From the NCBI RefSeq assembly GCF_057098645.1, contig NZ_CM169472.1: a DNA stretch of 64,000 nt. One strand, given 5' to 3'. Under the pieces are notes generated by a model. It was not told the DNA's origin. It was given only the letters and a program-made list of their open reading frames with translations, and did no database searches. Positions 2,352 through 38,991 of the stretch are shown here, piece after piece; positions within the stretch are counted from its first letter, which is position 1; each line of letters starts with the position of its first letter. The position numbers were made by a program, and so were the translations under genes.

Positions 2352-3674
2352 ATGAGTGCGTTAAGGGATGAAGTATCTATGAAGGTTGCGTTCTCTAATG
2401 GCATGATAAACAAATTATGCAAAAGTTTTTTTTATAGTCATGGTAAGGAGCAGCCTTGTATTCAAGTCGGTAAAGCATTAGAAGATTTTGTTTTTTGGCT
2501 TGCATATAATGATGAGGAGATTGCAAAATGTGCTAGTAGGTTATTAAAAGCATATGGCCCCCAATTAGGTATAAGTAACCTTCATAATGCGAAAAGATTA
2601 TTGTTAGGTTTTTGTTCTGAAGCCTTCAATCGCATTGATGCTGATTTTTTGTCGCTTAATCCTGATAAGATTTGTGTTGATGATATTATAACGCAAGTTC
2701 ATAGAAAAAATCTTAGTGAGATGTTTAAGTGTTATATACTTTCACGAATAAAATCCTGTCCATATATTTATAATCTTGGGTGTGCTGGCTTTGATGGGAA
2801 GCTTGAGCTTAGAGAAAATTTATTTTTATATGGCCCGGGGCTAGGGGTGGAATTACTTTCTGATATTAAAGACAAAACTGACATCAAGGTTCCTGTTGAT
2901 TTTTATGATGATGAATATATGCGGCATAAACCAATTGGGAAATATTTTCGACAGTCAAAATCCTGCTTGGTGGTGGCATATGCTTCATCAGAGGATAAAG
3001 CGGTGAAAATGTTTGATAGTTTGTTTGGAGCTTTATGTCTTGCAGTTGATAATCCTTTTGCGATTAATCGAGTTGCTGTTAATAATCTAGTTGAGTCTTT
3101 TGGTGTCGGGAAATATCATGAAAGTGAGTTTCGGGTGAATATTCCGTCTGTAAATAATTTAAATATAACGGATTCAACCTTGGCGATACTTACAAAAATA
3201 CTTTCATCACCTGATAAAAGGATGTTGTCTGCTCTTTCCTTTATAGCGCACGGGTGGAGAGATGACAAACGTGAAAGGTTTTTGAATCAATTTATAGCAT
3301 TGGATGCTATGTATGGAACCAATAATGGTAATAAAAATTCAATTATTGGCGGTGTTTGCAGAGATGCGGCGAAAATTATTGATATTGATTCAAAAATAGG
3401 AATAATCTATGAGCTTAGGTGTAAGTTTGTTCATGGAGATATTTCATCGTTATCTGATAATGATAGCTATCGAAAGTTTATTGATAGCTATGGCGTGGAC
3501 CCTATTGTTTCTCTTTTTGAAATTCTTAAAGAATGCGTCCTTAATTATAATGGTACTTACAAAACGCCAAAAGATGTTGGAAAGGCAGATAGGTCTATTT
3601 GCGTTCCTGCTGAGTTGCTTCCAGCGGTTGAGAGGATGATAGCGGAATACAGTGGAGTTAAAAAAACAAACTAA
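2352..3674 (+). CDS. hypothetical protein; AT-rich cargo gene at the tin/old position of P2; candidate anti-phage defence protein with C-terminal Rx4H (HEPN-like) motif
   Basis: 440-aa ORF, visibly AT-rich and Lys/Ile/Asn-rich unlike flanking phage genes; motif R356-CKFV-H361-GD; sits between gene A and cos. Confidence 0.75.
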   Translation: MSALRDEVSMKVAFSNGMINKLCKSFFYSHGKEQPCIQVGKALEDFVFWLAYNDEEIAKCASRLLKAYGPQLGISNLHNAKRLLLGFCSEAFNRIDADFLSLNPDKICVDDIITQVHRKNLSEMFKCYILSRIKSCPYIYNLGCAGFDGKLELRENLFLYGPGLGVELLSDIKDKTDIKVPVDFYDDEYMRHKPIGKYFRQSKSCLVVAYASSEDKAVKMFDSLFGALCLAVDNPFAINRVAVNNLVESFGVGKYHESEFRVNIPSVNNLNITDSTLAILTKILSSPDKRMLSALSFIAHGWRDDKRERFLNQFIALDAMYGTNNGNKNSIIGGVCRDAAKIIDIDSKIGIIYELRCKFVHGDISSLSDNDSYRKFIDSYGVDPIVSLFEILKECVLNYNGTYKTPKDVGKADRSICVPAELLPAVERMIAEYSGVKKTN

Positions 3675-13263: not shown

Positions 13264-14508
13264 CTAAATCCAGCGAAGGTAGAATAGTAAGTAAGGATCT
13301 CTGATGTCTAATACATCGCTTTCTTGATCCCACTCGATAATACTGCTATTTGCAGCATCGTTGGCAATAGCAGTTGAGTGCTGACATGCACTGGTTATAC
13401 TAGAACCGCTTGGGCTATCGCCATGACATAACGAGGTCACTCGAGATACTAAGTCAGAATAACGAAATGTCAGCGTCGGAGGATTAGAAGCAATGGCTTT
13501 TAATAAAAAGACATAAACATCGCCTTGCCAGCCATCTTTTGATATATATGATTTTCTATCAGAACCACGCACTTTAGGTCCTTCGCGCATTTTATCCACA
13601 ATCGTGCTGTAATCTGCTGACTGAAGTGTACGTTTGCACACTCTTTGCAATGTGGCAATATCTTTTTGATATTTTATTGAAGTATCAGAAGTCTCTCTGA
13701 CATTCATTTCAAAACAAGAGTTTAAGCATAAATATTGCATTAGTTGTGGTGAGCCTGCGGACTCTTTTACTAACTCACTTATAACTTCATCAGAGGCATC
13801 TATATTGAGTAGTTTGAATCCTTTCTGAGCAATAATTTTTAAGGTTGATTCATCCCAATAATCAAAATCAATATTAAATATCCGGCCTCGTAAGTCAGAG
13901 TTACCCCGAAGAACATCATCAGAATGATATGGCACTGATGCACAAATAAATTTGCAGCCATTAGCTATGGCATCTTTTATTTGTCGTGATAGTTCGGCTT
14001 GAGCTTCTTTAGCAATATAGTGAAAATCATCGATAAAGATAACATAATCTGTGTTTGCGATTTCTCGCTTCATTAGTTGAAAGAGATCTATCGCAAATGA
14101 TTCTGAGGTTTGATCTGCTGTACTATAACCAGCGGATGCAGACCCTTTAAGACTACCTTTTGCTAAAATTACACCAGCTTGGGCAGATAATTCTCCTGTA
14201 CTTGAAAATGATGAGGTGCCAGTTTTACTTTGAACTTGGGTTACTGGTACACCAAGTATGTCGAAAACGCGCTTCCATAAATCATTAGCAGATTGAACCC
14301 CTGCTCCAGTTACTTCGATTAGCCTCTGGGTTCCAAGTACTTTCTTAACAAAGACAGTTTTTCCTGATTTTGATGGGCCAGAGATAGAAATCAGCATGGT
14401 GCCCATCTCAAGTGTATCGATTAACTGTTGCTGTTTAGATACTAGGTGATCCTCAACCAGTGTGTGGTTGGGATAACCGCCTGGGATAAAAACCTCTGTC
14501 GCCTTCAT
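13264..14508 (-). CDS. hypothetical P-loop NTPase; AT-rich cargo gene between S and V; candidate anti-phage defence ATPase
   Basis: 414-aa ORF; Walker A GPSKSGKT (aa 44-51, nt 14356..14379); Walker B YVIFIDD (aa 155-161); Ser/Thr/Gly-rich insert between them; opposite strand and lower GC than the phage backbone. Confidence 0.8.
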   Translation of the reverse strand: MKATEVFIPGGYPNHTLVEDHLVSKQQQLIDTLEMGTMLISISGPSKSGKTVFVKKVLGTQRLIEVTGAGVQSANDLWKRVFDILGVPVTQVQSKTGTSSFSSTGELSAQAGVILAKGSLKGSASAGYSTADQTSESFAIDLFQLMKREIANTDYVIFIDDFHYIAKEAQAELSRQIKDAIANGCKFICASVPYHSDDVLRGNSDLRGRIFNIDFDYWDESTLKIIAQKGFKLLNIDASDEVISELVKESAGSPQLMQYLCLNSCFEMNVRETSDTSIKYQKDIATLQRVCKRTLQSADYSTIVDKMREGPKVRGSDRKSYISKDGWQGDVYVFLLKAIASNPPTLTFRYSDLVSRVTSLCHGDSPSGSSITSACQHSTAIANDAANSSIIEWDQESDVLDIRDPYLLFYLRWI

Positions 14509-18390: not shown

Positions 18391-18945
18391 ATGAACTCAG
18401 TATTCTTTTCACCCGGAAGTAAAAGTTTTTATCTGCAAGAATTGTTTCCAGAATATGAGGATGCGGGAACGCTTCCTGATGATGTTATTGAAATTACCCG
18501 AGAAACATATGAGCAATTTCTTGGGCTGCATCCAGAAGGGAAAGAAATTGGCGCTGACAGTTCAGGACGGCCAATATGGATTAATTCCCCGCCGCCTTCA
18601 AAAGAGGATGAGGTGCTGGCGGCTGAAATGAAAAAAATATCTTTGGTTTCAGAAGTCAATACCTACATCAATACCCATCAGTGGCCTGGCAAAGCTGCTA
18701 TTGGTCGTCTGAAAGGTGACGAGCTGGAACAATATAATTTATGGCTGGATTATCTGGACGCACTGGAACTGGTTGATACCTCCAGTGCTCCAGATTGCGT
18801 ATTCCGCTCTATTCGATCACGGATTGGCATCGAAGTCCGATCAGCGATTCGCATCCATTCGATCAACCGGGAACTTAACTTTTTCTACCGCTTTTTAACG
18901 CGTTTTTTCGCTGCTTTCCACTACCGGGGGATTTTTCCTCAGTGA
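18391..18945 (+). CDS. G: tail fibre assembly protein (gpG-like) with C-terminus replaced by IS-derived sequence
   Basis: 184-aa ORF; native sequence ends at ...DTSSAPD (nt ~18795), then reads into the IS21-family element. Confidence 0.7.
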   Translation: MNSVFFSPGSKSFYLQELFPEYEDAGTLPDDVIEITRETYEQFLGLHPEGKEIGADSSGRPIWINSPPPSKEDEVLAAEMKKISLVSEVNTYINTHQWPGKAAIGRLKGDELEQYNLWLDYLDALELVDTSSAPDCVFRSIRSRIGIEVRSAIRIHSINRELNFFYRFLTRFFAAFHYRGIFPQ

Positions 18946-19650
18946 CTCTCCCTGAAGGACCACTCGGTGTGAGTTATGTACCAGTCTGTCCAGGATGGCA
19001 TCTGCTGTTGTTGGGTTCTCCATCAGACCATGCCATTTATCTACCGGGAACTGGCTTACCACTATCGTGCTGCTTTGTCCGTAACGATCCTCTATGAGCT
19101 CCAGAAGGTCATTACACTGGGCGTTACTTAACTGTTCCAGCCCCAGATCGTCCAGGATTAGAACCTGTATTTTTTGCAACTGTTTCAGATATTTCAGCCA
19201 GCTGCCATCAACACGTCCCTGAGCCAGTTGTTCCAGTAATCGCCCGGTTCTACAGTACCGGACGCTGTGTTTCTGTCGACATGCCTGTTCGCCCAGCGCA
19301 TTGGCTATCCAGCTCTTGCCACATCCTGTCGGACCGGTTATCAGCAGGTTTTTCCTGTGGGTTATGTAGTGGCCGTTCAGCAGTTCTCTCATCTGTTCAG
19401 CCCGCAGACCTCTTGAGGCCGGATAGCGCAGCCCTTCCGGTGTTGCCTGGTATTTCAGGCCGGCATTTTTTCTCAACCGTGCCACACGGCTGTTTTCCCT
19501 GCTCAGAAGCTCGTCATCAACCAGCAGCGTCAGCCTTTCCTCGAACGACAGTTCGTCGTAGGTCTGAGGCGTTTCCCGCTGCCGTATCAGGCTCCCGGCC
19601 ATCGCCGGGAGTTTCAGTTGGGTCAGTTTGTTTAACAGGTTATCACTCAT
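18895..19650 (-). CDS. istB: IS21-family helper ATPase IstB
   Basis: Walker A GPTGCGKS, Walker B VLILDDLG; start trimmed to MSDNLLNKL within ORF-track 18895..19893. Confidence 0.9.
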   Translation of the reverse strand: MSDNLLNKLTQLKLPAMAGSLIRQRETPQTYDELSFEERLTLLVDDELLSRENSRVARLRKNAGLKYQATPEGLRYPASRGLRAEQMRELLNGHYITHRKNLLITGPTGCGKSWIANALGEQACRQKHSVRYCRTGRLLEQLAQGRVDGSWLKYLKQLQKIQVLILDDLGLEQLSNAQCNDLLELIEDRYGQSSTIVVSQFPVDKWHGLMENPTTADAILDRLVHNSHRVVLQGESLRKNPPVVESSEKTR

Positions 19651-19666
19651 ACTGTTGTTCCTTCTG

Positions 19667-21202
19667 TCAGTGGTAGTAGCCCGGACCACGCAGGTTTTCA
19701 TGCTCTGAAGCATATGCCGGATGTTGTTCGCCCTGGCGGGATAATGGAAGCTCCAGGTTCTCCCGATGGTGACGCAGCAGATTGTCGATAAAGCGTCTGT
19801 CAGGGGCGTTATAGTGCAGGGCAACGTAACAGGCCTTTTCCAGCCGTTCCGGGCCGTATTTTTTCTGAAGTGCCAGCAGCCCCAGAACTGCACGATAAGC
19901 CAGTTCCGGATGGGGTTTTGCCTTCAGCATGGATTCAACCACCCGGCCTGTGGACGGGCCCGTACGTTTTCCCTGCTCGATCAGGCGTTCCGGTGTCCAT
20001 GTCCCGTGCTGCCGGTGGCGCTCTGGCATGTGAAGCGGATTGGTTGTGTGTTTATATTCATGTGTGCTGCGCGGATGTTGCGCCACACACTGCCCCTTGT
20101 GCCAGAGCTGTACCACCGACTGCCCCGCCTTCAGTGACAGACGCTGACCGACCAGTTCGTGTGGAACGGAGTACCAGTGACGGGCATATTCAACGTGGTA
20201 GTCAGGGCCAACCTTCACAGCTTTGTATTCCGTGTATTCATAAGGTGCCAGAGGCAGCGGAGAGAGTGCTGGCGCATCCAGTATGCGGAAGCGTTCTGCA
20301 CGGGTTTGATTGCCGTACCCCTTCATTGGCCGGTTATTCATGTCTGTCAGTAACTCCCTAAGGCGCGCATTCAGCGCCCTGAGCGTGTGGAAGGTTTCAT
20401 TACGGATGCGGGCAAGAAGCCATCGTTCAACGATGAGGACGCCGTTTTCTGCTTTTGGTTTATCTTTAGGTTTGCGTGGTCGGGCCGGGATGATAACCGT
20501 GCCATAGTGCTCAGCCAGTGCCTGATAACTGTCGTTGATGACAGGCTCATATCGATCGGCCTTTTTCACTGCGCTTCTGAGGTTATCGGGGATGAGCAGC
20601 TTCGGTACGCCGCCCAGGAAGGTCAGGCAACGGCTGTGGGCATTTAACCATGACATCATGTCCTGACCTTCGCACGCTTCAACGTAGGTATAGTTGGACG
20701 CCCCCATTACGGCCACGAAGATTGCCACGCGGCGTATCTCACCGGTGTCCGGATTAATAACAGGAACCGTAGGACCACAGAAGTCGATAAAAAGCTTTTC
20801 GCCGGCACGATGCTCCTGGCGCATGGAGAGACGTCGCGTTTTTTTCCACTCCCGGTAGCAACGGCAGAAGTGCGAGTATCCCATCGCTTTGTTACCCGCC
20901 TGTGCCTTGTATTCCATCCACAACAGTTGCCGCGTCACACCTGGTTTTCTCATTTCCGTATCGAAGTACAACATGTCAGGCATTACAAGCTCTGATGCAA
21001 AGGTGTCTTTGGGCGGAAAAATGAGTTTCTCCAGCGTGTCATGGGATATATCAGCAGGTAATGGCCATGACAGAGAAGAGGCTTTGAAGCGGGCAAGAAC
21101 CTCAAAAACGGTTGAGGCGCTGATGTGTAACGTCAGTCCGATACAACGGTTAGTCAGCTTCTTGTCGAACTTGAGCTGAAGGATCTTAAAACAGGTTTCC
21201 AT
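19667..21202 (-). CDS. istA: IS21-family transposase IstA
   Basis: N-terminal HTH then DDE-type core; start trimmed to METCFKIL within ORF-track 19667..21313 (track start is a TTG). Confidence 0.88.
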   Translation of the reverse strand: METCFKILQLKFDKKLTNRCIGLTLHISASTVFEVLARFKASSLSWPLPADISHDTLEKLIFPPKDTFASELVMPDMLYFDTEMRKPGVTRQLLWMEYKAQAGNKAMGYSHFCRCYREWKKTRRLSMRQEHRAGEKLFIDFCGPTVPVINPDTGEIRRVAIFVAVMGASNYTYVEACEGQDMMSWLNAHSRCLTFLGGVPKLLIPDNLRSAVKKADRYEPVINDSYQALAEHYGTVIIPARPRKPKDKPKAENGVLIVERWLLARIRNETFHTLRALNARLRELLTDMNNRPMKGYGNQTRAERFRILDAPALSPLPLAPYEYTEYKAVKVGPDYHVEYARHWYSVPHELVGQRLSLKAGQSVVQLWHKGQCVAQHPRSTHEYKHTTNPLHMPERHRQHGTWTPERLIEQGKRTGPSTGRVVESMLKAKPHPELAYRAVLGLLALQKKYGPERLEKACYVALHYNAPDRRFIDNLLRHHRENLELPLSRQGEQHPAYASEHENLRGPGYYH

Positions 21203-21299
21203 AGTGCTCCTGGATTTTCTCTTTCTGGACATTGACGTCTCCACTGGTTTAAACACGGCAATGGAGACTGTGGTGAAAAGAGTTAATTCCCGGAGTGAC

Positions 21300-21434
21300 T
21301 GGCAGGATGCCAATCAATGATCGGAAGCATGCCAAATCGTGATCGATTGTGATGCCAAACTGTGATCGGAGATGGATGCCAAATCATGATCGATTCGAAT
21401 GCCAAACTGCGATCGATTCAGATGCCATTTTGCA
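21300..21434. repeat. tandem ~20-bp terminal repeats of the IS21-family element (transposase binding sites)
   Basis: five to six copies of GATGCCAAA(C/T)NGTGATCGAT-like units; similar units inverted at the other end (18796..18880). Confidence 0.7.
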
Positions 21435-21450
21435 CCAGATATTGAATGGC

Positions 21451-22056
21451 CTACGCCTCCGGTAGTTCAGGCCAGATGACATCCGGCGCGGTGCTGATAT
21501 CTGTTGCAGTCACCGCGTCAATGTAATCCAGCACAGCGTTAAGCCGGGTTGTTTCTGCCTGCGTCAGCTTCCGCCCGGCCTGCAATTTCAGCTGAATCAG
21601 ACTAATGGAAGCCATAGCCGCATCAATCAGTGACTGGCGCCGTACTTCTGCCGCGTCTACTGCGGCGTTATGCTGTGCCTCAGTGTCGGTCACCCATTTC
21701 TCACCATCCCATTTATCGTATGACGTTAACGGGGCGATAGTGGTTGTATTTTCAGGGTAATCACCCGGAACTGTGATTTCTTTTGATTCTCCTGTTTCGG
21801 TGCTATAGACGATTTCACCGCGATGGTCTGGCACATATTCCCATGAGTTAAAATCTGCAGAACGGCAAATTGCATAACCAGCTTTATATGAGCCAGGAGC
21901 ATCTAAACAGGAACATGCCGGGATACCGACACCCACAGCAAGATATTCAGTTGATGTGGAAATATATTCCCGTGTTTCACCATCATAATTATAAACGGTA
22001 ATGTCTCCGGCCTTTGTGGCGATGAGTTCATTATTTAATACAGCTTTACTTATCAT
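21451..22056 (-). CDS. tail fibre assembly protein, alternative copy in the invertible segment
   Basis: 201-aa ORF ending ...APDVIWPELPEA; directly downstream of the alternative fibre C-terminal cassette. Confidence 0.85.
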   Translation of the reverse strand: MISKAVLNNELIATKAGDITVYNYDGETREYISTSTEYLAVGVGIPACSCLDAPGSYKAGYAICRSADFNSWEYVPDHRGEIVYSTETGESKEITVPGDYPENTTTIAPLTSYDKWDGEKWVTDTEAQHNAAVDAAEVRRQSLIDAAMASISLIQLKLQAGRKLTQAETTRLNAVLDYIDAVTATDISTAPDVIWPELPEA

Positions 22057-22565
22057 GCAGCCCTCACAATATAATTAAAGGCGATGTTACGGGAGCGGGT
22101 TTCAGATGCTGTGCGAACTGAGCGAGATGCGTCGAATGTCCAGTTATAAGCGCCATAACCCTCAATAATTTCGGCTTCCTTTAGACCTGTAGATAATACT
22201 TGCCCATGTTGACTAAATGGCCCTGAACTAAGTACGTCTCTAAAAAGCTGGGTACGCCCAAAAGAACCAACAATATTCTGAATTGCATCATTCTGTGCAG
22301 ATAATAAGTTACGACCAGAGTCAATCCCGCGCCCATCATCCCAGCCACGAATAAATTCACCGCGTAAATCTGGTAATTTTAATGTTGGGTAAGCCTTTGC
22401 CAGATTTGGGTACTTTTCAGAAGAAAATACTGCTCCGTTACATTTTAGCCACCCCATTGGCGGAGTGGCTGAAGGCCACGGAACAGGCACACCAACCGGT
22501 AATGCAGAGCCTTCTCCCAAACCAACGTTTAAGAAAATGCAGAGATTATGTCTAACTGGCATCAT
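22053..22565 (-). CDS. alternative tail fibre C-terminal cassette (promoterless; expressed only after inversion fuses it to H)
   Basis: ORF contains the same NVGLGE junction motif as H at the crossover site; lies between the right crossover site and the alternative assembly gene. Confidence 0.75.
   Translation of the reverse strand: MMPVRHNLCIFLNVGLGEGSALPVGVPVPWPSATPPMGWLKCNGAVFSSEKYPNLAKAYPTLKLPDLRGEFIRGWDDGRGIDSGRNLLSAQNDAIQNIVGSFGRTQLFRDVLSSGPFSQHGQVLSTGLKEAEIIEGYGAYNWTFDASRSVRTASETRSRNIAFNYIVRAA
22512..22537. other. site-specific recombination (crossover) site of a Gin/Hin-family invertase, right copy
   Basis: TTCTCCCAAACC-AA-CGTTTAAGAAAA fits the TTnTCnnAAACC-nn-GGTTTnnGAnAA consensus with one mismatch; adjacent to the invertase gene. 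Confidence 0.65.
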
Positions 22566-22592
22566 CTCCGGTTTTTATTCAGGGGGATGCTC

Positions 22593-23186
22593 ATGCTTAT
22601 TGGCTATGTACGCGTGTCAACAAATGACCAGAACACGGAATTGCAGCGTAATGCGCTGGAGTGCGCAGGATGTGAGCTGATTTTTGAGGACAAAATCAGC
22701 GGCACGAAGTCCGACAGGCCGGGGCTGAAAAAACTGCTCAGAACATTATCGGAAGGTGACACTCTGGTTGTCTGGAAGCTGGACAGGCTGGGGCGTAGTA
22801 TGCGGCATCTGGTCATTCTGGTTGAGGAACTGCGCGAACGCGGCGTTAATTTTCGCAGCCTGACGGATGCTATTGATACCAGCACGCCGATGGGGCGTTT
22901 TTTCTTTCATGTGATGGGTGCCCTGGCTGAAATGGAGCGAGAACTCATTGTCGAGCGGACACGCGCCGGACTGGAAGCGGCCAGAGCCAAAGGTCGTATT
23001 GGTGGCAGACGACCGAAACTCACCGCGAGTGAGTGGGAGCAGGCCGGGCGTTTGCTGGCTGCAGGGGAGTCACGTCAACGCGTGGCACTGATTTTTGATA
23101 TTGGTCTGTCCACGCTCTATAAAAAATTTCCCTCATCAGCGACAAAGAATAAATTGTGTCATCCCTTAGCCAACCGGGACAAATAG
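22593..23186 (+). CDS. serine DNA invertase (Gin/Hin/Cin/Pin family)
   Basis: MLIGYVRVSTNDQ catalytic-serine N-terminus and C-terminal HTH; start trimmed from ORF-track 22548. Confidence 0.9.
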   Translation: MLIGYVRVSTNDQNTELQRNALECAGCELIFEDKISGTKSDRPGLKKLLRTLSEGDTLVVWKLDRLGRSMRHLVILVEELRERGVNFRSLTDAIDTSTPMGRFFFHVMGALAEMERELIVERTRAGLEAARAKGRIGGRRPKLTASEWEQAGRLLAAGESRQRVALIFDIGLSTLYKKFPSSATKNKLCHPLANRDK

Positions 23187-27905: not shown

Positions 27906-28385
27906 ATGATGCTCGCGTTAGGTATGTTTGTTTTTATGCGCCAGACGCTGCCACACCAGACCATGCAGCGTGAATCAGATTATCGCTGGCCGTCAAATTC
28001 CCGTATCGGTAAACGGGATGCCTTTCAGTTTCTCGGTGTGGGTGAGGAAAACATTACGCTTGCCGGTGTGCTTTATCCCGAACTGACCGGCGGCAAGCTG
28101 ACGATGACCACGCTCAGGCTGATGGCAGAGGAAGGTCGGGCGTGGCCGTTGCTGGATGGCACCGGCATGATTTACGGCATGTATGTCATCAGCAGGGTGA
28201 GTGAAACAGGGAGTATTTTCTTTGCAGACGGCACACCCCGAAAAATTGATTTTACGCTGTCGCTCACCCGCGTGGATGAATCACTGGCCGCGCTTTATGG
28301 CGATATCGGTAAACAGGCGGAATCGCTCATCGGTAAGGCTGGCAGTATGGCGACTAAATTCACGGGGATGACGGGGGCGGGATAA
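27906..28385 (+). CDS. U: tail protein (P2 gpU-like)
   Basis: 159-aa ORF; synteny. Confidence 0.9.
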   Translation: MMLALGMFVFMRQTLPHQTMQRESDYRWPSNSRIGKRDAFQFLGVGEENITLAGVLYPELTGGKLTMTTLRLMAEEGRAWPLLDGTGMIYGMYVISRVSETGSIFFADGTPRKIDFTLSLTRVDESLAALYGDIGKQAESLIGKAGSMATKFTGMTGAG

Positions 28386-29548
28386 TGCTGGATGCGCTGA
28401 CATTTGATGCAGGCAGTACGCTGACGCCGGATTACATGCTGATGCTCGACAGCAGGGATATTACCGGCAATATCAGCGACCGTCTGATGAGCATGACCCT
28501 GACGGATAACCGGGGCTTTGAGGCTGACCAGCTTGATATTGAACTGAACGACGCCGACGGGCAGGTAGGGCTGCCGGTTCGTGGCGCTGTCCTGACGGTG
28601 TATATCGGCTGGAAAGGTTTTGCCCTGGTATGCAAAGGGAAATTTACCGTTGATGAGGTTGAACACCGGGGCGCGCCGGATGTGGTCACCATCCGCGCCC
28701 GGAGTGCAGATTTTCGCGGGACGCTCAATTCCCGCCGGGAAGGCTCCTGGCATGACACCACGCTCGGTGCGATTGTTGAGGCGATTGCCTCCCGTAACAG
28801 GCTGGAAGCCAGTGTCGCTCCGTCACTGGCCGGAATTAAAATCCCGCACATCGATCAGTCGCAGGAGTCTGATGCGAAATTCCTGACCCGTCTAGCAGAA
28901 CGCAACGGCGGTGAGGTGTCGGTAAAAATGGGAAAACTGTTGTTTCTCAAAGCGGGGCAGGGGGTGACGGCCAGCGGTAAAAAAATCCCGCAGATTACCA
29001 TCACCCGCAGCGACGGCGACCGTCATCATTTTGCGATTGCTGACCGTGGAGCCTACACCGGCGTAACGGCAAAGTGGTTACACACCAAAGACCCGAAGCC
29101 ACAAAAGCAGAAGGTAAAACTGAAACGCAAAAAGAAAGAGAAACACCTGCGCGCACTGGAGCACCCGAAAGCGAAACCGGTCACGCAGAAGAAAGCGCCA
29201 AAAGTACCGGAAGCGCGCGAAGGTGAATACATGGCCGGTGAGGCTGACAATGTTTTTGCCCTGACCACGGTATATGCCACGAAAGCGCAGGCCATGCGCG
29301 CCGCTCAGGCGAAGTGGGACAAACTGCAACGGGGCGTCGCGGAGTTCTCCATCAGTCTGGCTACCGGTCGGGCAGATATTTACACGGAAACGCCGGTCAA
29401 AGTGTCAGGCTTTAAGCGCGTCATAGACGAGCAGGACTGGACAATCACTAAGGTGACACACTTTCTGAATAATAGCGGCTTCACGACGTCCTTGGAGCTT
29501 GAGGTCAGGCTTTCTGATGTGGAGTACGAAACAGAAGATGATGAGTGA
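28385..29548 (+). CDS. D: tail protein (P2 gpD-like, late control gene D)
   Basis: 387-aa ORF; synteny. Confidence 0.92.
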   Translation: MLDALTFDAGSTLTPDYMLMLDSRDITGNISDRLMSMTLTDNRGFEADQLDIELNDADGQVGLPVRGAVLTVYIGWKGFALVCKGKFTVDEVEHRGAPDVVTIRARSADFRGTLNSRREGSWHDTTLGAIVEAIASRNRLEASVAPSLAGIKIPHIDQSQESDAKFLTRLAERNGGEVSVKMGKLLFLKAGQGVTASGKKIPQITITRSDGDRHHFAIADRGAYTGVTAKWLHTKDPKPQKQKVKLKRKKKEKHLRALEHPKAKPVTQKKAPKVPEAREGEYMAGEADNVFALTTVYATKAQAMRAAQAKWDKLQRGVAEFSISLATGRADIYTETPVKVSGFKRVIDEQDWTITKVTHFLNNSGFTTSLELEVRLSDVEYETEDDE

Positions 29549-29629: not shown

Positions 29630-29848
29630 ATGTTTCATTGTCCTTTATGCCAGCATGCCGCACATGCGCGTACAAGTCGCTATATCACTGACACGACAAA
29701 AGAGCGTTATCACCAGTGCCAGAACGTGAATTGCAGCGCCACGTTCATCACTTATGAGTCGGTACAGCGATACATCGTGAAGCCGGGAGAAGTCCACGCC
29801 GTAAGGCCGCACCCGTTGCCGTCAGGGCAGCAAATTATGTGGATGTAA
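29630..29848 (+). CDS. ogr: late transcription activator Ogr (zinc-finger)
   Basis: 72-aa ORF MFHCPLCQHAAH...CQNVNC with four Cys; start trimmed from ORF-track 29555. Confidence 0.9.
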   Translation: MFHCPLCQHAAHARTSRYITDTTKERYHQCQNVNCSATFITYESVQRYIVKPGEVHAVRPHPLPSGQQIMWM

Positions 29849-29860
29849 TTACAAACAGAA

Positions 29861-29886
29861 AGCCCCTCAGTCGAGGGGCTTTTTTT
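29861..29886 (+). terminator. intrinsic terminator after ogr
   Basis: AGCCCCTC-AGTC-GAGGGGCT hairpin followed by TTTTTTT. Confidence 0.75.
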
Positions 29887-29976
29887 GTCGATGTGGTCAA
29901 TGTGTGGACGTGACCAGAAATAAATCCTTTTATTTCATGCAATTAGATATCAAAAAATGTCACCAATAACTGACAT
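29887..29976. other. attR: attR: prophage right attachment region with Int arm-type repeats and a core overlapping the pflA start
   Basis: direct repeats TGTGGTCA / TGTGGACG resemble the P2 Int arm-site consensus TGTGGACA; host-like sequence resumes at ~29962. Confidence 0.5.
29950..29976 (-). pseudogene. pflA: pflA 5' fragment: native start codon plus five codons (MSVIG) fused to phage sequence, reading MSVIGDIF-stop
   Basis: reverse complement ATGTCAGTTATTGGT sits ~191 nt downstream of the pflB stop, where pflA starts in E. coli; the frame hits a stop after 8 codons. Confidence 0.7.
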
Positions 29977-30100
29977 TGCGGTGTTTCTCCAGATGTGGCC
30001 CATCTGAGGCCGTGTTGGTGCGCAGCTCGAAGGCTACGTCGAGTCTGTTTTGGCAGTCACCTTAAAGTATAGATAGCTGACAAAAAAGGCTCTCGTGCTA

Positions 30101-30128
30101 AAAAAGGCCCCACTTTCGTGGAGCCTTT
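30101..30128 (-). terminator. pflB intrinsic terminator
   Basis: imperfect GC hairpin followed by a T-run on the minus strand just downstream of the pflB stop. Confidence 0.55.
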
Positions 30129-30167
30129 ATTGTACGCTTTTTACTGTACGATTTCAGTCAAATCTAA

Positions 30168-32450
<2,283 letters not shown>

Positions 32451-36548: not shown

Positions 36549-37637
36549 ATGGCTCAAATCTTCAATTTTAGTTCTGGTCCGGCAATGCTACCGGCAGAGG
36601 TGCTTAAACAGGCTCAACAGGAACTGCGTGACTGGAACGGTCTTGGTACGTCGGTGATGGAAGTGAGTCACCGTGGCAAAGAGTTCATTCAGGTTGCAGA
36701 GGAAGCCGAGAAGGATTTTCGCGATCTTCTTAATGTCCCCTCCAACTACAAGGTATTATTCTGCCATGGCGGTGGTCGCGGTCAGTTTGCTGCGGTACCG
36801 CTGAATATTCTCGGTGATAAAACCACCGCAGATTATGTTGATGCCGGTTACTGGGCGGCAAGTGCCATTAAAGAAGCGAAAAAATACTGCACGCCTAATG
36901 TCTTTGACGCCAAAGTGACTGTTGATGGTCTGCGCGCGGTTAAGCCAATGCGTGAATGGCAACTCTCTGATAATGCTGCTTATATGCATTACTGCCCGAA
37001 TGAAACCATCGACGGTATCGCCATCGACGAAACGCCAGACTTCGGCAAAGATGTGGTGGTTGCCGCCGACTTCTCTTCAACCATTCTTTCCCGTCCGATT
37101 GACGTCAGCCGTTATGGTGTAATTTACGCTGGCGCGCAGAAAAATATCGGCCCGGCAGGCCTGACAATCGTCATCGTCCGTGAAGATTTGCTGGGCAAAG
37201 CGAATGTCGCGTGTCCGTCGATTCTGGATTATTCCATCCTCAACGATAATGGCTCCATGTTTAACACGCCGCCGACATTTGCCTGGTATCTGTCTGGTCT
37301 GGTCTTTAAATGGCTGAAAGCGAACGGCGGTGTAGCTGAAATGGATAAAATCAATCAGCAAAAAGCAGAACTGCTATATGGGGTGATTGATAACAGCGAT
37401 TTCTACCGCAATGACGTGGCGAAAGCTAACCGTTCGCGGATGAACGTGCCGTTCCAGTTGGCGGACAGTGCGCTTGACAAATTGTTCCTTGAAGAGTCTT
37501 TTGCTGCAGGCCTTCATGCACTGAAAGGTCACCGTGTGGTCGGCGGAATGCGCGCGTCTATTTATAATGCCATGCCGCTGGAAGGCGTTAAAGCGCTGAC
37601 AGACTTCATGGTTGAGTTCGAACGCCGTCACGGTTAA
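36549..37637 (+). CDS. serC: phosphoserine aminotransferase
   Basis: 362-aa ORF starting [15 protein letters not shown]. Confidence 0.95.
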
Positions 37638-37656
37638 TGCCGAAATTTTGCTTAAT

Positions 37657-37684
37657 CCCCACAGCCAGCCTGTGGGGTTTTTAT
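37657..37684 (+). terminator. hairpin plus T-run between serC and aroA (internal attenuator/terminator of the serC-aroA operon)
   Basis: CCCCACA-GCCAGCC-TGTGGGG followed by TTTTTAT. Confidence 0.65.
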
Positions 37685-37707
37685 TTCTGTTGTAGAGAGT
37701 TGAGTTC

Positions 37708-38991
37708 ATGGAATCCCTGACGTTACAACCCATCGCTCGTGTCGATGGCACTATTAATCTGCCCGGTTCCAAGAGCGTTTCTAACCGCGCTTTATTGCTG
37801 GCGGCATTAGCACACGGCAAAACAGTATTAACCAATCTGCTGGATAGCGATGACGTGCGCCATATGCTGAATGCATTAACAGCGTTAGGGGTAAGCTATA
37901 CGCTTTCAGCCGATCGTACACGTTGCGAAATTATCGGTAACGGCGGTCCATTACACGCAGAAGGTGCCCTGGAGTTGTTCCTCGGTAACGCCGGAACGGC
38001 AATGCGTCCGCTGGCGGCAGCTCTTTGTCTGGGTAGCAATGATATTGTGCTGACCGGTGAGCCGCGTATGAAAGAGCGCCCAATTGGTCATCTGGTGGAT
38101 GCGCTGCGCCTGGGCGGGGCGAAGATCATTTACCTGGAACAAGAAAATTATCCGCCGTTGCGTTTACAGGGCGGCTTTACTGGCGGCAACGTTGACGTTG
38201 ATGGCTCCGTTTCCAGCCAATTCCTCACCGCACTGTTAATGACTGCGCCTCTTGCGCCGGAAGATACGGTGATTCGTATTAAAGGCGATCTGGTTTCTAA
38301 ACCTTATATCGACATCACACTCAATCTGATGAAGACGTTTGGTGTTGAAATTGAAAATCAGCACTATCAACAATTTGTCGTAAAAGGCGGGCAGTCTTAT
38401 CAGTCTCCGGGTACTTATTTGGTCGAAGGCGATGCATCTTCGGCTTCTTACTTTCTGGCAGCAGCAGCAATCAAAGGCGGCACTGTAAAAGTGACCGGTA
38501 TTGGACGTAACAGTATGCAGGGTGATATTCGCTTTGCTGATGTGCTGGAAAAAATGGGCGCGACCATTTGCTGGGGCGATGATTATATTTCCTGCACGCG
38601 TGGTGAACTGAACGCTATTGATATGGATATGAACCATATTCCTGATGCGGCGATGACCATTGCCACGGCGGCGTTATTTGCAAAAGGCACCACCACGCTG
38701 CGCAATATCTATAACTGGCGTGTTAAAGAAACCGATCGCCTGTTTGCGATGGCAACAGAACTGCGTAAAGTCGGTGCGGAAGTAGAAGAGGGGCACGATT
38801 ACATTCGTATCACTCCACCGGAAAAACTGAACTTTGCCGAGATCGCGACATACAATGATCACCGGATGGCGATGTGTTTCTCGCTGGTGGCGTTGTCAGA
38901 TACACCAGTGACGATTCTTGATCCCAAATGTACGGCCAAAACATTTCCGGATTATTTCGAGCAGCTGGCGCGGATTAGCCAGGCAGCCTGA
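37708..38991 (+). CDS. aroA: 3-phosphoshikimate 1-carboxyvinyltransferase (EPSP synthase)
   Basis: 427-aa ORF starting [23 protein letters not shown]. Confidence 0.95.

Follow-up and report, generated by a model that had tools for sequence, protein, structure and literature searches.

The attR junction of a P2-like prophage of PhiD145 attachment type in the first codons of pflA, and a phage-borne leader that probably keeps the gene usable

The window, the whole 64,000-nucleotide stretch of contig NZ_CM169472.1 (assembly GCF_057098645.1) that was analysed here, contains at 29887-29976 the attR junction of a P2-like (Peduovirus) prophage that lies in the first codons of the host gene pflA. The features on the two sides of this junction are as follows (coordinates in the window; unstranded where no strand is given):

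1-29961: P2-like prophage portion within the window, from the start codon of a gpA-like replication endonuclease gene to attR
28385-29548: gpD-like ORF, a P2-type tail gene before ogr
29630-29848, plus strand: ogr (late-gene activator), the last phage gene before attR; it starts ATG TTT CAT TGT (MFHC) and is annotated ogrK in matching genomes
29859-29882: 10-bp GC-rich hairpin, the rho-independent ogr terminator in the P2 annotation; also terminator-like for transcripts from the pflA promoter side
29889-29916: Int arm-type site, called P arm in P2, in which TGTGGTCA and TGTGGACG are direct repeats; it reads as the P2 P arm
29917-29961: phage DNA between core and P arm; its distal portion (gaaataaaaggatttatt) agrees with a piece of the annotated P2 IHF site
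29950-29976, minus strand: orphan pflA 5' end, the native start codon and codons 2-5 followed by phage DNA (MSVIGDIF-stop)
29962-29974: 13-bp exact identity core GTCAGTTATTGGT (minus-strand reading), common to attR, attL, attB and attP
29963-29970: GTTATTGG, the probable strand-exchange (overlap) region, pflA codons 3-5
29977-30167, minus strand: native pflB-pflA intergenic region of 191 nt, assigned by K-12 identity, with the pflB terminator and the expected location of the native pflA promoter
30168-32450, minus strand: pflB (formate C-acetyltransferase), the host gene upstream of the junction, a 760-aa ORF annotated pflB in matching E. coli genomes

The host side of the junction was identified by comparison with the uninterrupted pflB-pflA locus of E. 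coli K-12 MG1655. The minus strand from 29976 to 29950 reads ATG TCA GTT ATT GGT GAC ATT TTT TGA (MSVIGDIF and a stop), in agreement with the first-pass annotation of this DNA, which had noticed MSVIG followed by a stop about 191 nt past pflB and had taken it for the N-terminus of PflA. The gap between pflB and this ATG is 191 nt in the window and the same in K-12, 199 of the 200 nt upstream of the ATG are identical to K-12 (ungapped comparison anchored on the ATG), and the match to K-12 is complete up to nt 15 of the pflA coding sequence and breaks down from nt 16; the upstream identity and the perfect match through nt 15 together exclude a chance match. This N-terminus is correct, since the K-12 PflA translation (MSVIGRIHSFES) and the PDB chains 3c8f and 3cb8, which begin SVIGRIHSFES, identify MSVIG as the genuine PflA N-terminus. 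The pflA gene is known to possess its own native promoter (PMC12338860). A tblastn search of the entire window with PflA found no pflA body; the other prophage end is thus not in the window, and attL was read in related genomes (below).

On the phage side, the 28-nt stretch 29889-29916 has the sequence of the annotated P2 P arm (AF063097, 24293-24320), which bears out the resemblance to P2 Int arm-type sites that had been noted from the letters. The direct repeats that adjoin the core, TGTGGTCA at 29892-29899 and TGTGGACG at 29903-29910, both on the plus strand, fit the P2-type arm site consensus tgTGGaCa (PMC3448106 section 7). Upstream of this arm the window carries P2-type tail, lysis, head and replication genes, with ogr and its terminator hairpin as the final phage gene after the tail genes, and the annotations of matching genomes agree with this; the early genes upstream of the replication gene, Cox, C, int and attL are outside the window. 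The native pflA promoter had been said to point into ogr antisense, and this direction is right, but the terminator-like hairpin at 29859-29882 intervenes.

The 13-bp core GTCAGTTATTGGT is nt 3-15 of pflA, so the att core does overlap the pflA start as had been proposed. It is the sole exact repeat present at both prophage ends, with one copy in the window and two copies (at 3417 and 37985) that flank the prophage at the corresponding locus of E. coli AR_0081. The attP core reads A-GTCA-GTTATTGG-TGAC-A, that is, inverted half-sites GTCA/TGAC around an 8-bp centre, and within the core the attL junctions of E. coli, Citrobacter and Salmonella have only GTTATTGG in common (other lineages differ there). 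The crossover must lie within the 13 bp of identity, and on these two grounds most likely in GTTATTGG, codons 3-5. The junction had originally been placed in codon 5-6, which is indeed the edge of the identity, but the strand exchange itself would lie somewhat further inside.

An attP rebuilt from the phage sides of attL and attR is 100% identical across the joint to that of the free phage Peduovirus P24A7b, which confirms site-specific integration; it is 97.5-98.9% identical to 13 further phage records, and the pro483 and pro147 records match it only up to the core.

Is this attachment site new? The first-pass annotation had not known it as a described P2-family integration site, and in this it does not stand. 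The P2-like phages PhiD145 and PhiD160 have been placed at MG1655 coordinate 950293, and a Pectobacterium prophage is given the same site identity (PMC3448106 Table 1); section 7 of the same paper attributes the site to earlier work and refers to Mandali 2010 for its characterisation. The pflA gene occupies 950340-951080 of the current MG1655 record (NC_000913.3). The offset of about +777 from the older to the current numbering converts 950293 to about nt 11 of pflA, inside GTTATTGG, and by this conversion the attachment site at the pflA start is already described. The PhiD145-type site was reportedly first found by Karlsson et al. in 2006. In the searchable literature we did not find pflA named as a P2-like attachment site, and the link is made only through the coordinate in Table 1 of PMC3448106. 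Like PhiD145 and PhiD160, the prophage in the window has its attachment coordinate inside the 13-bp core, and it has P2-type arm sites, ogr and P2-like structural genes; it is assigned to the PhiD145 type by its attachment coordinate. The alternative of an assembly artefact or an isolated rearrangement in place of site-specific integration is effectively refuted and has a negligible probability in our estimation: no supporting point was found, about 400 independent complete genomes carry these two joints (below), the rebuilt attP exactly matches a free phage, and the published PhiD145/PhiD160 site is inside this core.

The facts on attL given here come from related genomes, the closest of which is 98.4% identical to the window over its first 12 kb (none of the complete E. 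coli genomes exceeds this value) and whose junctions are 99.6-99.9% identical. In E. coli AR_0081 the order is focA-pflB-attR-ogr ... Cox-C-int-attL-pflA-ycaD, with int at 36899-37894 of the extracted locus (L001) and pflA annotated as 265 aa; locus L023 has the same layout. The record of CM2010-0578/1 begins at the window's first gene and has ycaK-pflA(265 aa)-int-C-Cox at its far end. The pflA body was thus found where it had been predicted to be, beyond the far prophage end, downstream of int and co-oriented with it. At attL the int stop codon is followed by a 31-nt spacer, a phage leader ORF, and pflA from codon 2 onwards. The leader reads ATG AGT AAT TTA ACT AAT TGT AAT ACA ACA GAA AAT ACC GCT ACG GCG GGG GCT ACC AAG and continues directly into TCA GTT ATT GGT CGC ATT CAC, which is pflA from its second codon. 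The native pflA ATG is thereby changed to AAG, and the ORF opens instead at the phage ATG 60 nt upstream with a 20-codon leader in frame, giving a 265-aa PflA (MSNLTNCNTTENTATAGATK-SVIGRIHSFES...) in which SNLTNCNTTENTATAGATK would be a tryptic peptide. The suggestion that pflA is reconstituted at the far end therefore holds in part: the ORF is kept open across attL at 265 aa in loci L001, L005, L006, L017 and L023 and in the decayed prophages described below, but the native ATG and the native form of the protein are not restored.

The arrangement is common. The ogr-pflB joint is present in 402 and the int-pflA joint in 404 of 5,426 complete E. coli genomes; about 7.4%, or about 1 in 14, carry both. 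The exact 265-aa leader-PflA protein was found on at least 1,000 contigs. In Klebsiella pneumoniae, 336 contigs hold a PflA fused to this same leader, and E. albertii has the leader too. A scan of genome contigs with the integrase gave three loci, including Rahnella, and a 60-aa protein query gave fragments only and pointed to the Citrobacter lineage and to one of the decayed prophages (L018). An IMG/VR scan with an integrase alignment returned 80 loci, nearly all of which end at the int stop codon with no junction visible.

We think it very probable that a P2-like prophage of PhiD145 attachment type is integrated in the start of pflA, that the phage supplies a start codon and leader, and that pflA remains usable. 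Recombination by the tyrosine integrase placed the phage in the first pflA codons, with exchange probably in GTTATTGG. The native promoter, ribosome-binding site, ATG and codons 2-5 stay at attR as an 8-codon orphan ORF; next come the IHF-like site, the Int P arm and ogr with its terminator hairpin, and the native promoter would there drive this short ORF before its transcription meets the terminator-like hairpin. In the related genomes, where alone this end could be read, the pflA body is displaced by about 33 kb to attL, and the phage DNA just past int gives it an ATG and a leader of 20 codons that runs in frame into pflA codon 2. In the lysogen pflA would then be transcribed from phage DNA, likely by read-through of C-int from Pc and possibly with some help from a weak promoter-like site in the P' arm, and the N-terminally extended PflA would still activate pyruvate formate-lyase, so that the phage would occupy the site at no cost to the host's fermentation pathway.

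What signals could express the displaced gene? A Pc-like promoter, GTCACA-16-TATAAT, precedes C on the attL side of related genomes, and no terminator-like site was found on the plus strand from C to the end of pflA. Nothing of this kind stands between C-int and pflA, so prophage promoters could plausibly express the gene, and C-int read-through into pflA would be the simplest model in the prophage state. A weaker promoter-like match, TTAACC-16-CATAAT, lies over the P' arm, and 47 nt separate the start of its second hexamer from the leader ATG. No specific pflA promoter is claimed, because promoter scans did not exceed shuffled controls (4 promoter-like matches found against 3.8 expected from dinucleotide shuffles) and because the decayed Salmonella prophages have lost the -10-like element that lies between the repeats of the P' arm. 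The fused pflA is likely to be functionally expressed in the lysogen. A switch by excision (active lysogeny), in which pflA would be regulated by loss of the prophage, was rejected as the main reading since the integrated form also has an open pflA frame.

We collected 11 attL or "fossil" (decayed prophage) junctions from E. coli, E. albertii, Citrobacter portucalensis, Rahnella (three variants), Salmonella enterica (two) and three further assemblies. The gene order in Citrobacter portucalensis is Cox-C-Int-pflA, and the Rahnella integrase is 76% identical. Each of the 11 junctions has an ATG and precisely 20 codons ahead of PflA codon 2, and the leader frame is free of stops in every one of them, the other two frames having 1-4 stops each. 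Met1 and Cys7 of the leader do not vary among the 11, and Asn3, Leu4, Thr5 and Glu11 hardly do. The pooled pN/pS amounts to 0.48 for leader codons 2-11 and 0.72 for codons 12-20, noisy estimates that come from only 20 codons. Conservation of the first leader codons could stem in part from protein-binding sites in attP and not from a function of the peptide, since P2 has Cox sites in the equivalent stretch.

This last point belongs to a wider alternative, in which integration simply inactivates pflA, the 265-aa ORF is an annotation convenience, the leader is open only because of Cox or Int binding sites, and lysogens are without PflA. The Cox binding sites that the P2 annotation (AF063097) places between the core and the P' arm are in keeping with it, as are a Shine-Dalgarno match ahead of the leader ATG that looks weak when the alignment is inspected by eye, and the failure of the promoter match to rise above chance. 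We nevertheless regard inactivation as unlikely, for the arrangement is present in 7.4% of complete E. coli genomes, and the fossils keep the ATG, the frame and 20 stop-free codons although the neighbouring integrase has decayed. There are five such fossils (L107, L109, L018 and the Salmonella loci L024 and L026), and the leader-pflA ORF is intact in all five. In L107 the integrase is reduced to residues 269-331, in L109 and L018 it is barely recognisable, and the two Salmonella lineages keep a remnant of it between sopD2 and pflA. The match of the Salmonella DNA to the K-12 intergenic region is limited to the first ~67 nt after pflB, so that the native pflA promoter region is gone, and the leader ATG is the only pflA start visible there; in the decayed prophages generally, the leader ATG appears from the sequence to be the sole start of pflA. 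Loss of the integrase with retention of the leader is the best evidence we have for the fusion as a working gene.

Could pflA be functional in lysogens and the leader still be absent from the protein? Translation would then begin at a non-canonical start near the junction, and the upstream ORF would be incidental. Some junctions offer a footing for this: the native start position is still an ATG in the Rahnella type, a GTG lies three codons ahead of PflA codon 3 in L107, and one Salmonella gene call begins at an internal ATT. In the E. coli type, on the other hand, there is no in-frame ATG, GTG or TTG between the leader ATG and PflA codon 2, and the stop-free frame with its fixed length of 20 codons in 11 of 11 sequences also speaks against an incidental ORF; we consider such a start highly improbable. 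Translation from the leader ATG to give the extended 265-aa protein remains our preferred reading. An AlphaFold model of this protein predicts leader residues 1-18 to be disordered (pLDDT <50) on a confidently folded body (pTM 0.81). The model, and analogy with other extended forms of PflA, suggest that the PflA body may tolerate an N-terminal extension, and we counted this in favour of a usable fusion.

The junction may be compared with several known systems. Like the P2 attP (locI), the rebuilt site has the order int, P' arm, core, IHF site, P arm, bidirectional terminator and ogr, with the same sequence in the P arm and in part of the IHF site. The core and the core-to-int DNA are unrelated to those of P2, and here the latter codes for a leader in frame with the target gene; P2 itself inserts between genes. 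Phage 21 and the element e14 integrate in icd, an essential metabolic gene, and carry a substitute for the displaced gene end, so that the gene stays functional. They replace the 3' end of icd, leaving the host promoter and start codon untouched, whereas here it is the 5' end that is replaced, together with the promoter, ribosome-binding site and start codon. A closer likeness in this respect is given by the dusA-specific integrases and islands, in which the element replaces the 5' end of a protein-coding gene and the ORF is kept open (Farrugia et al. 2015, PMC4482086), with putative promoters upstream of dusA after insertion (PMC4482086). The dusA elements differ in integrase family and target, and their replacement is a structural beta-strand; here, by contrast, a predicted disordered extension is added and at most one or two native residues are changed.

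Taken as a whole this is an ordinary, known junction with one neat detail, and it alters no major open question. It is a clear example of a phage that targets the 5' end of a core fermentation gene and brings a substitute start with it, and what is added here is that the phage supplies an in-frame leader, which is conserved across genera and survives where the prophage has decayed. The leader cassette has no mention in the searchable literature, which leaves out two primary papers on the site. For the annotation of genomes, a short MSVIGDIF ORF after pflB, or a pflA of 265 aa, is a marker of this prophage and not of a damaged gene. In a lysogen pflA should depend on phage-derived signals, and its expression may shift upon prophage induction. 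Because the leader outlasts the decay of the prophage, a housekeeping gene can acquire phage DNA permanently, and the Salmonella sopD2 locus may be one such case.

In two Salmonella enterica assemblies (GCA_010400525.1, L024 1970-4298, and GCA_025579025.1, L026 1936-4277) the order is pflB, sopD2, about 570 nt, and leader-fused pflA. The ~570-nt stretch holds a decayed P2-type integrase with 70-71% nucleotide identity to the phage side of the E. coli attL (E values of 1e-24 to 1e-26), and the sopD2 calls are by an NCBIfam equivalog model with 660-684 bits. By its sequence the locus looks like the scar of a PhiD145-type prophage of which sopD2 is surviving cargo; sopD2 together with pflA was not found in the searchable literature. 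A broader and more tentative idea, which we judge possible at best, is that PhiD145-type phages carry in attP a dedicated 20-codon cassette for a replacement N-terminus (motif M-x-N-L-T-x-C with its invariant Cys), which would place pflA on phage transcription and translation signals and could survive prophage decay as the only pflA start in whole lineages, the Salmonella pflB-sopD2-pflA locus being one such scar with sopD2 as its cargo.

Several side observations were made on the leader, on PflA and on the prophage in the window. In the attP of the free phage P24A7b (L004 1842-1925) the leader is part of a 27-codon ORF, MSNLTNCNTTENTATAGATKSVIGDIF, that runs across the attP core and is without annotation in the phage record. 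In Providencia and relatives (P0141, P0146, P0257) PflA has a threonine-rich N-terminal extension of similar length, for example MSTTQKTIPTTEISTTSPPA..., and one such extended form is at an ordinary pflB-pflA locus without an integrase (L020 3001-3791, L021). Several public E. coli chromosome records (among them NZ_CP087564.1, NZ_CP135653.1 and NZ_AP040168.1) begin exactly at the same phage replication gene as the window, apparently rotated to this prophage gene rather than to dnaA; in NZ_CP087564.1 the record start splits the prophage across both record ends. Since several records start at this gene, the window is probably the start of a record rotated to the replication endonuclease gene.

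An IS21-family element lies at 18895-21313 (minus strand) in the tail-fibre region of the window prophage (NCBIfam: istA, 548 aa, 284 bits; istB, 332 aa, 257 bits), and because of this insertion the prophage may be defective, perhaps unable to excise or grow. In the relative E. coli AR_0081 a similar IS21-family element (ISEc12) sits in the tape-measure gene instead. Between the replication endonuclease and portal genes, at 2352-3674 (plus strand), is a 440-aa ORF with no match in PADLOC or NCBIfam, whose position suggests an accessory (cargo) gene; the annotations of matching genomes include a HEPN domain-containing protein that is possibly this ORF. A 414-aa ORF at 13264-14508 (minus strand), on the opposite strand within the late-gene block, matches the PADLOC candidate family PDC-S59 (E 2.8e-31) and is possibly a putative defence cargo gene. 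At 21451-23186 a serine recombinase/invertase-like ORF (22548-23186, plus strand) lies beside two minus-strand ORFs of 201 and 170 aa, which suggests an invertible tail-fibre segment of the Gin/Cin kind.
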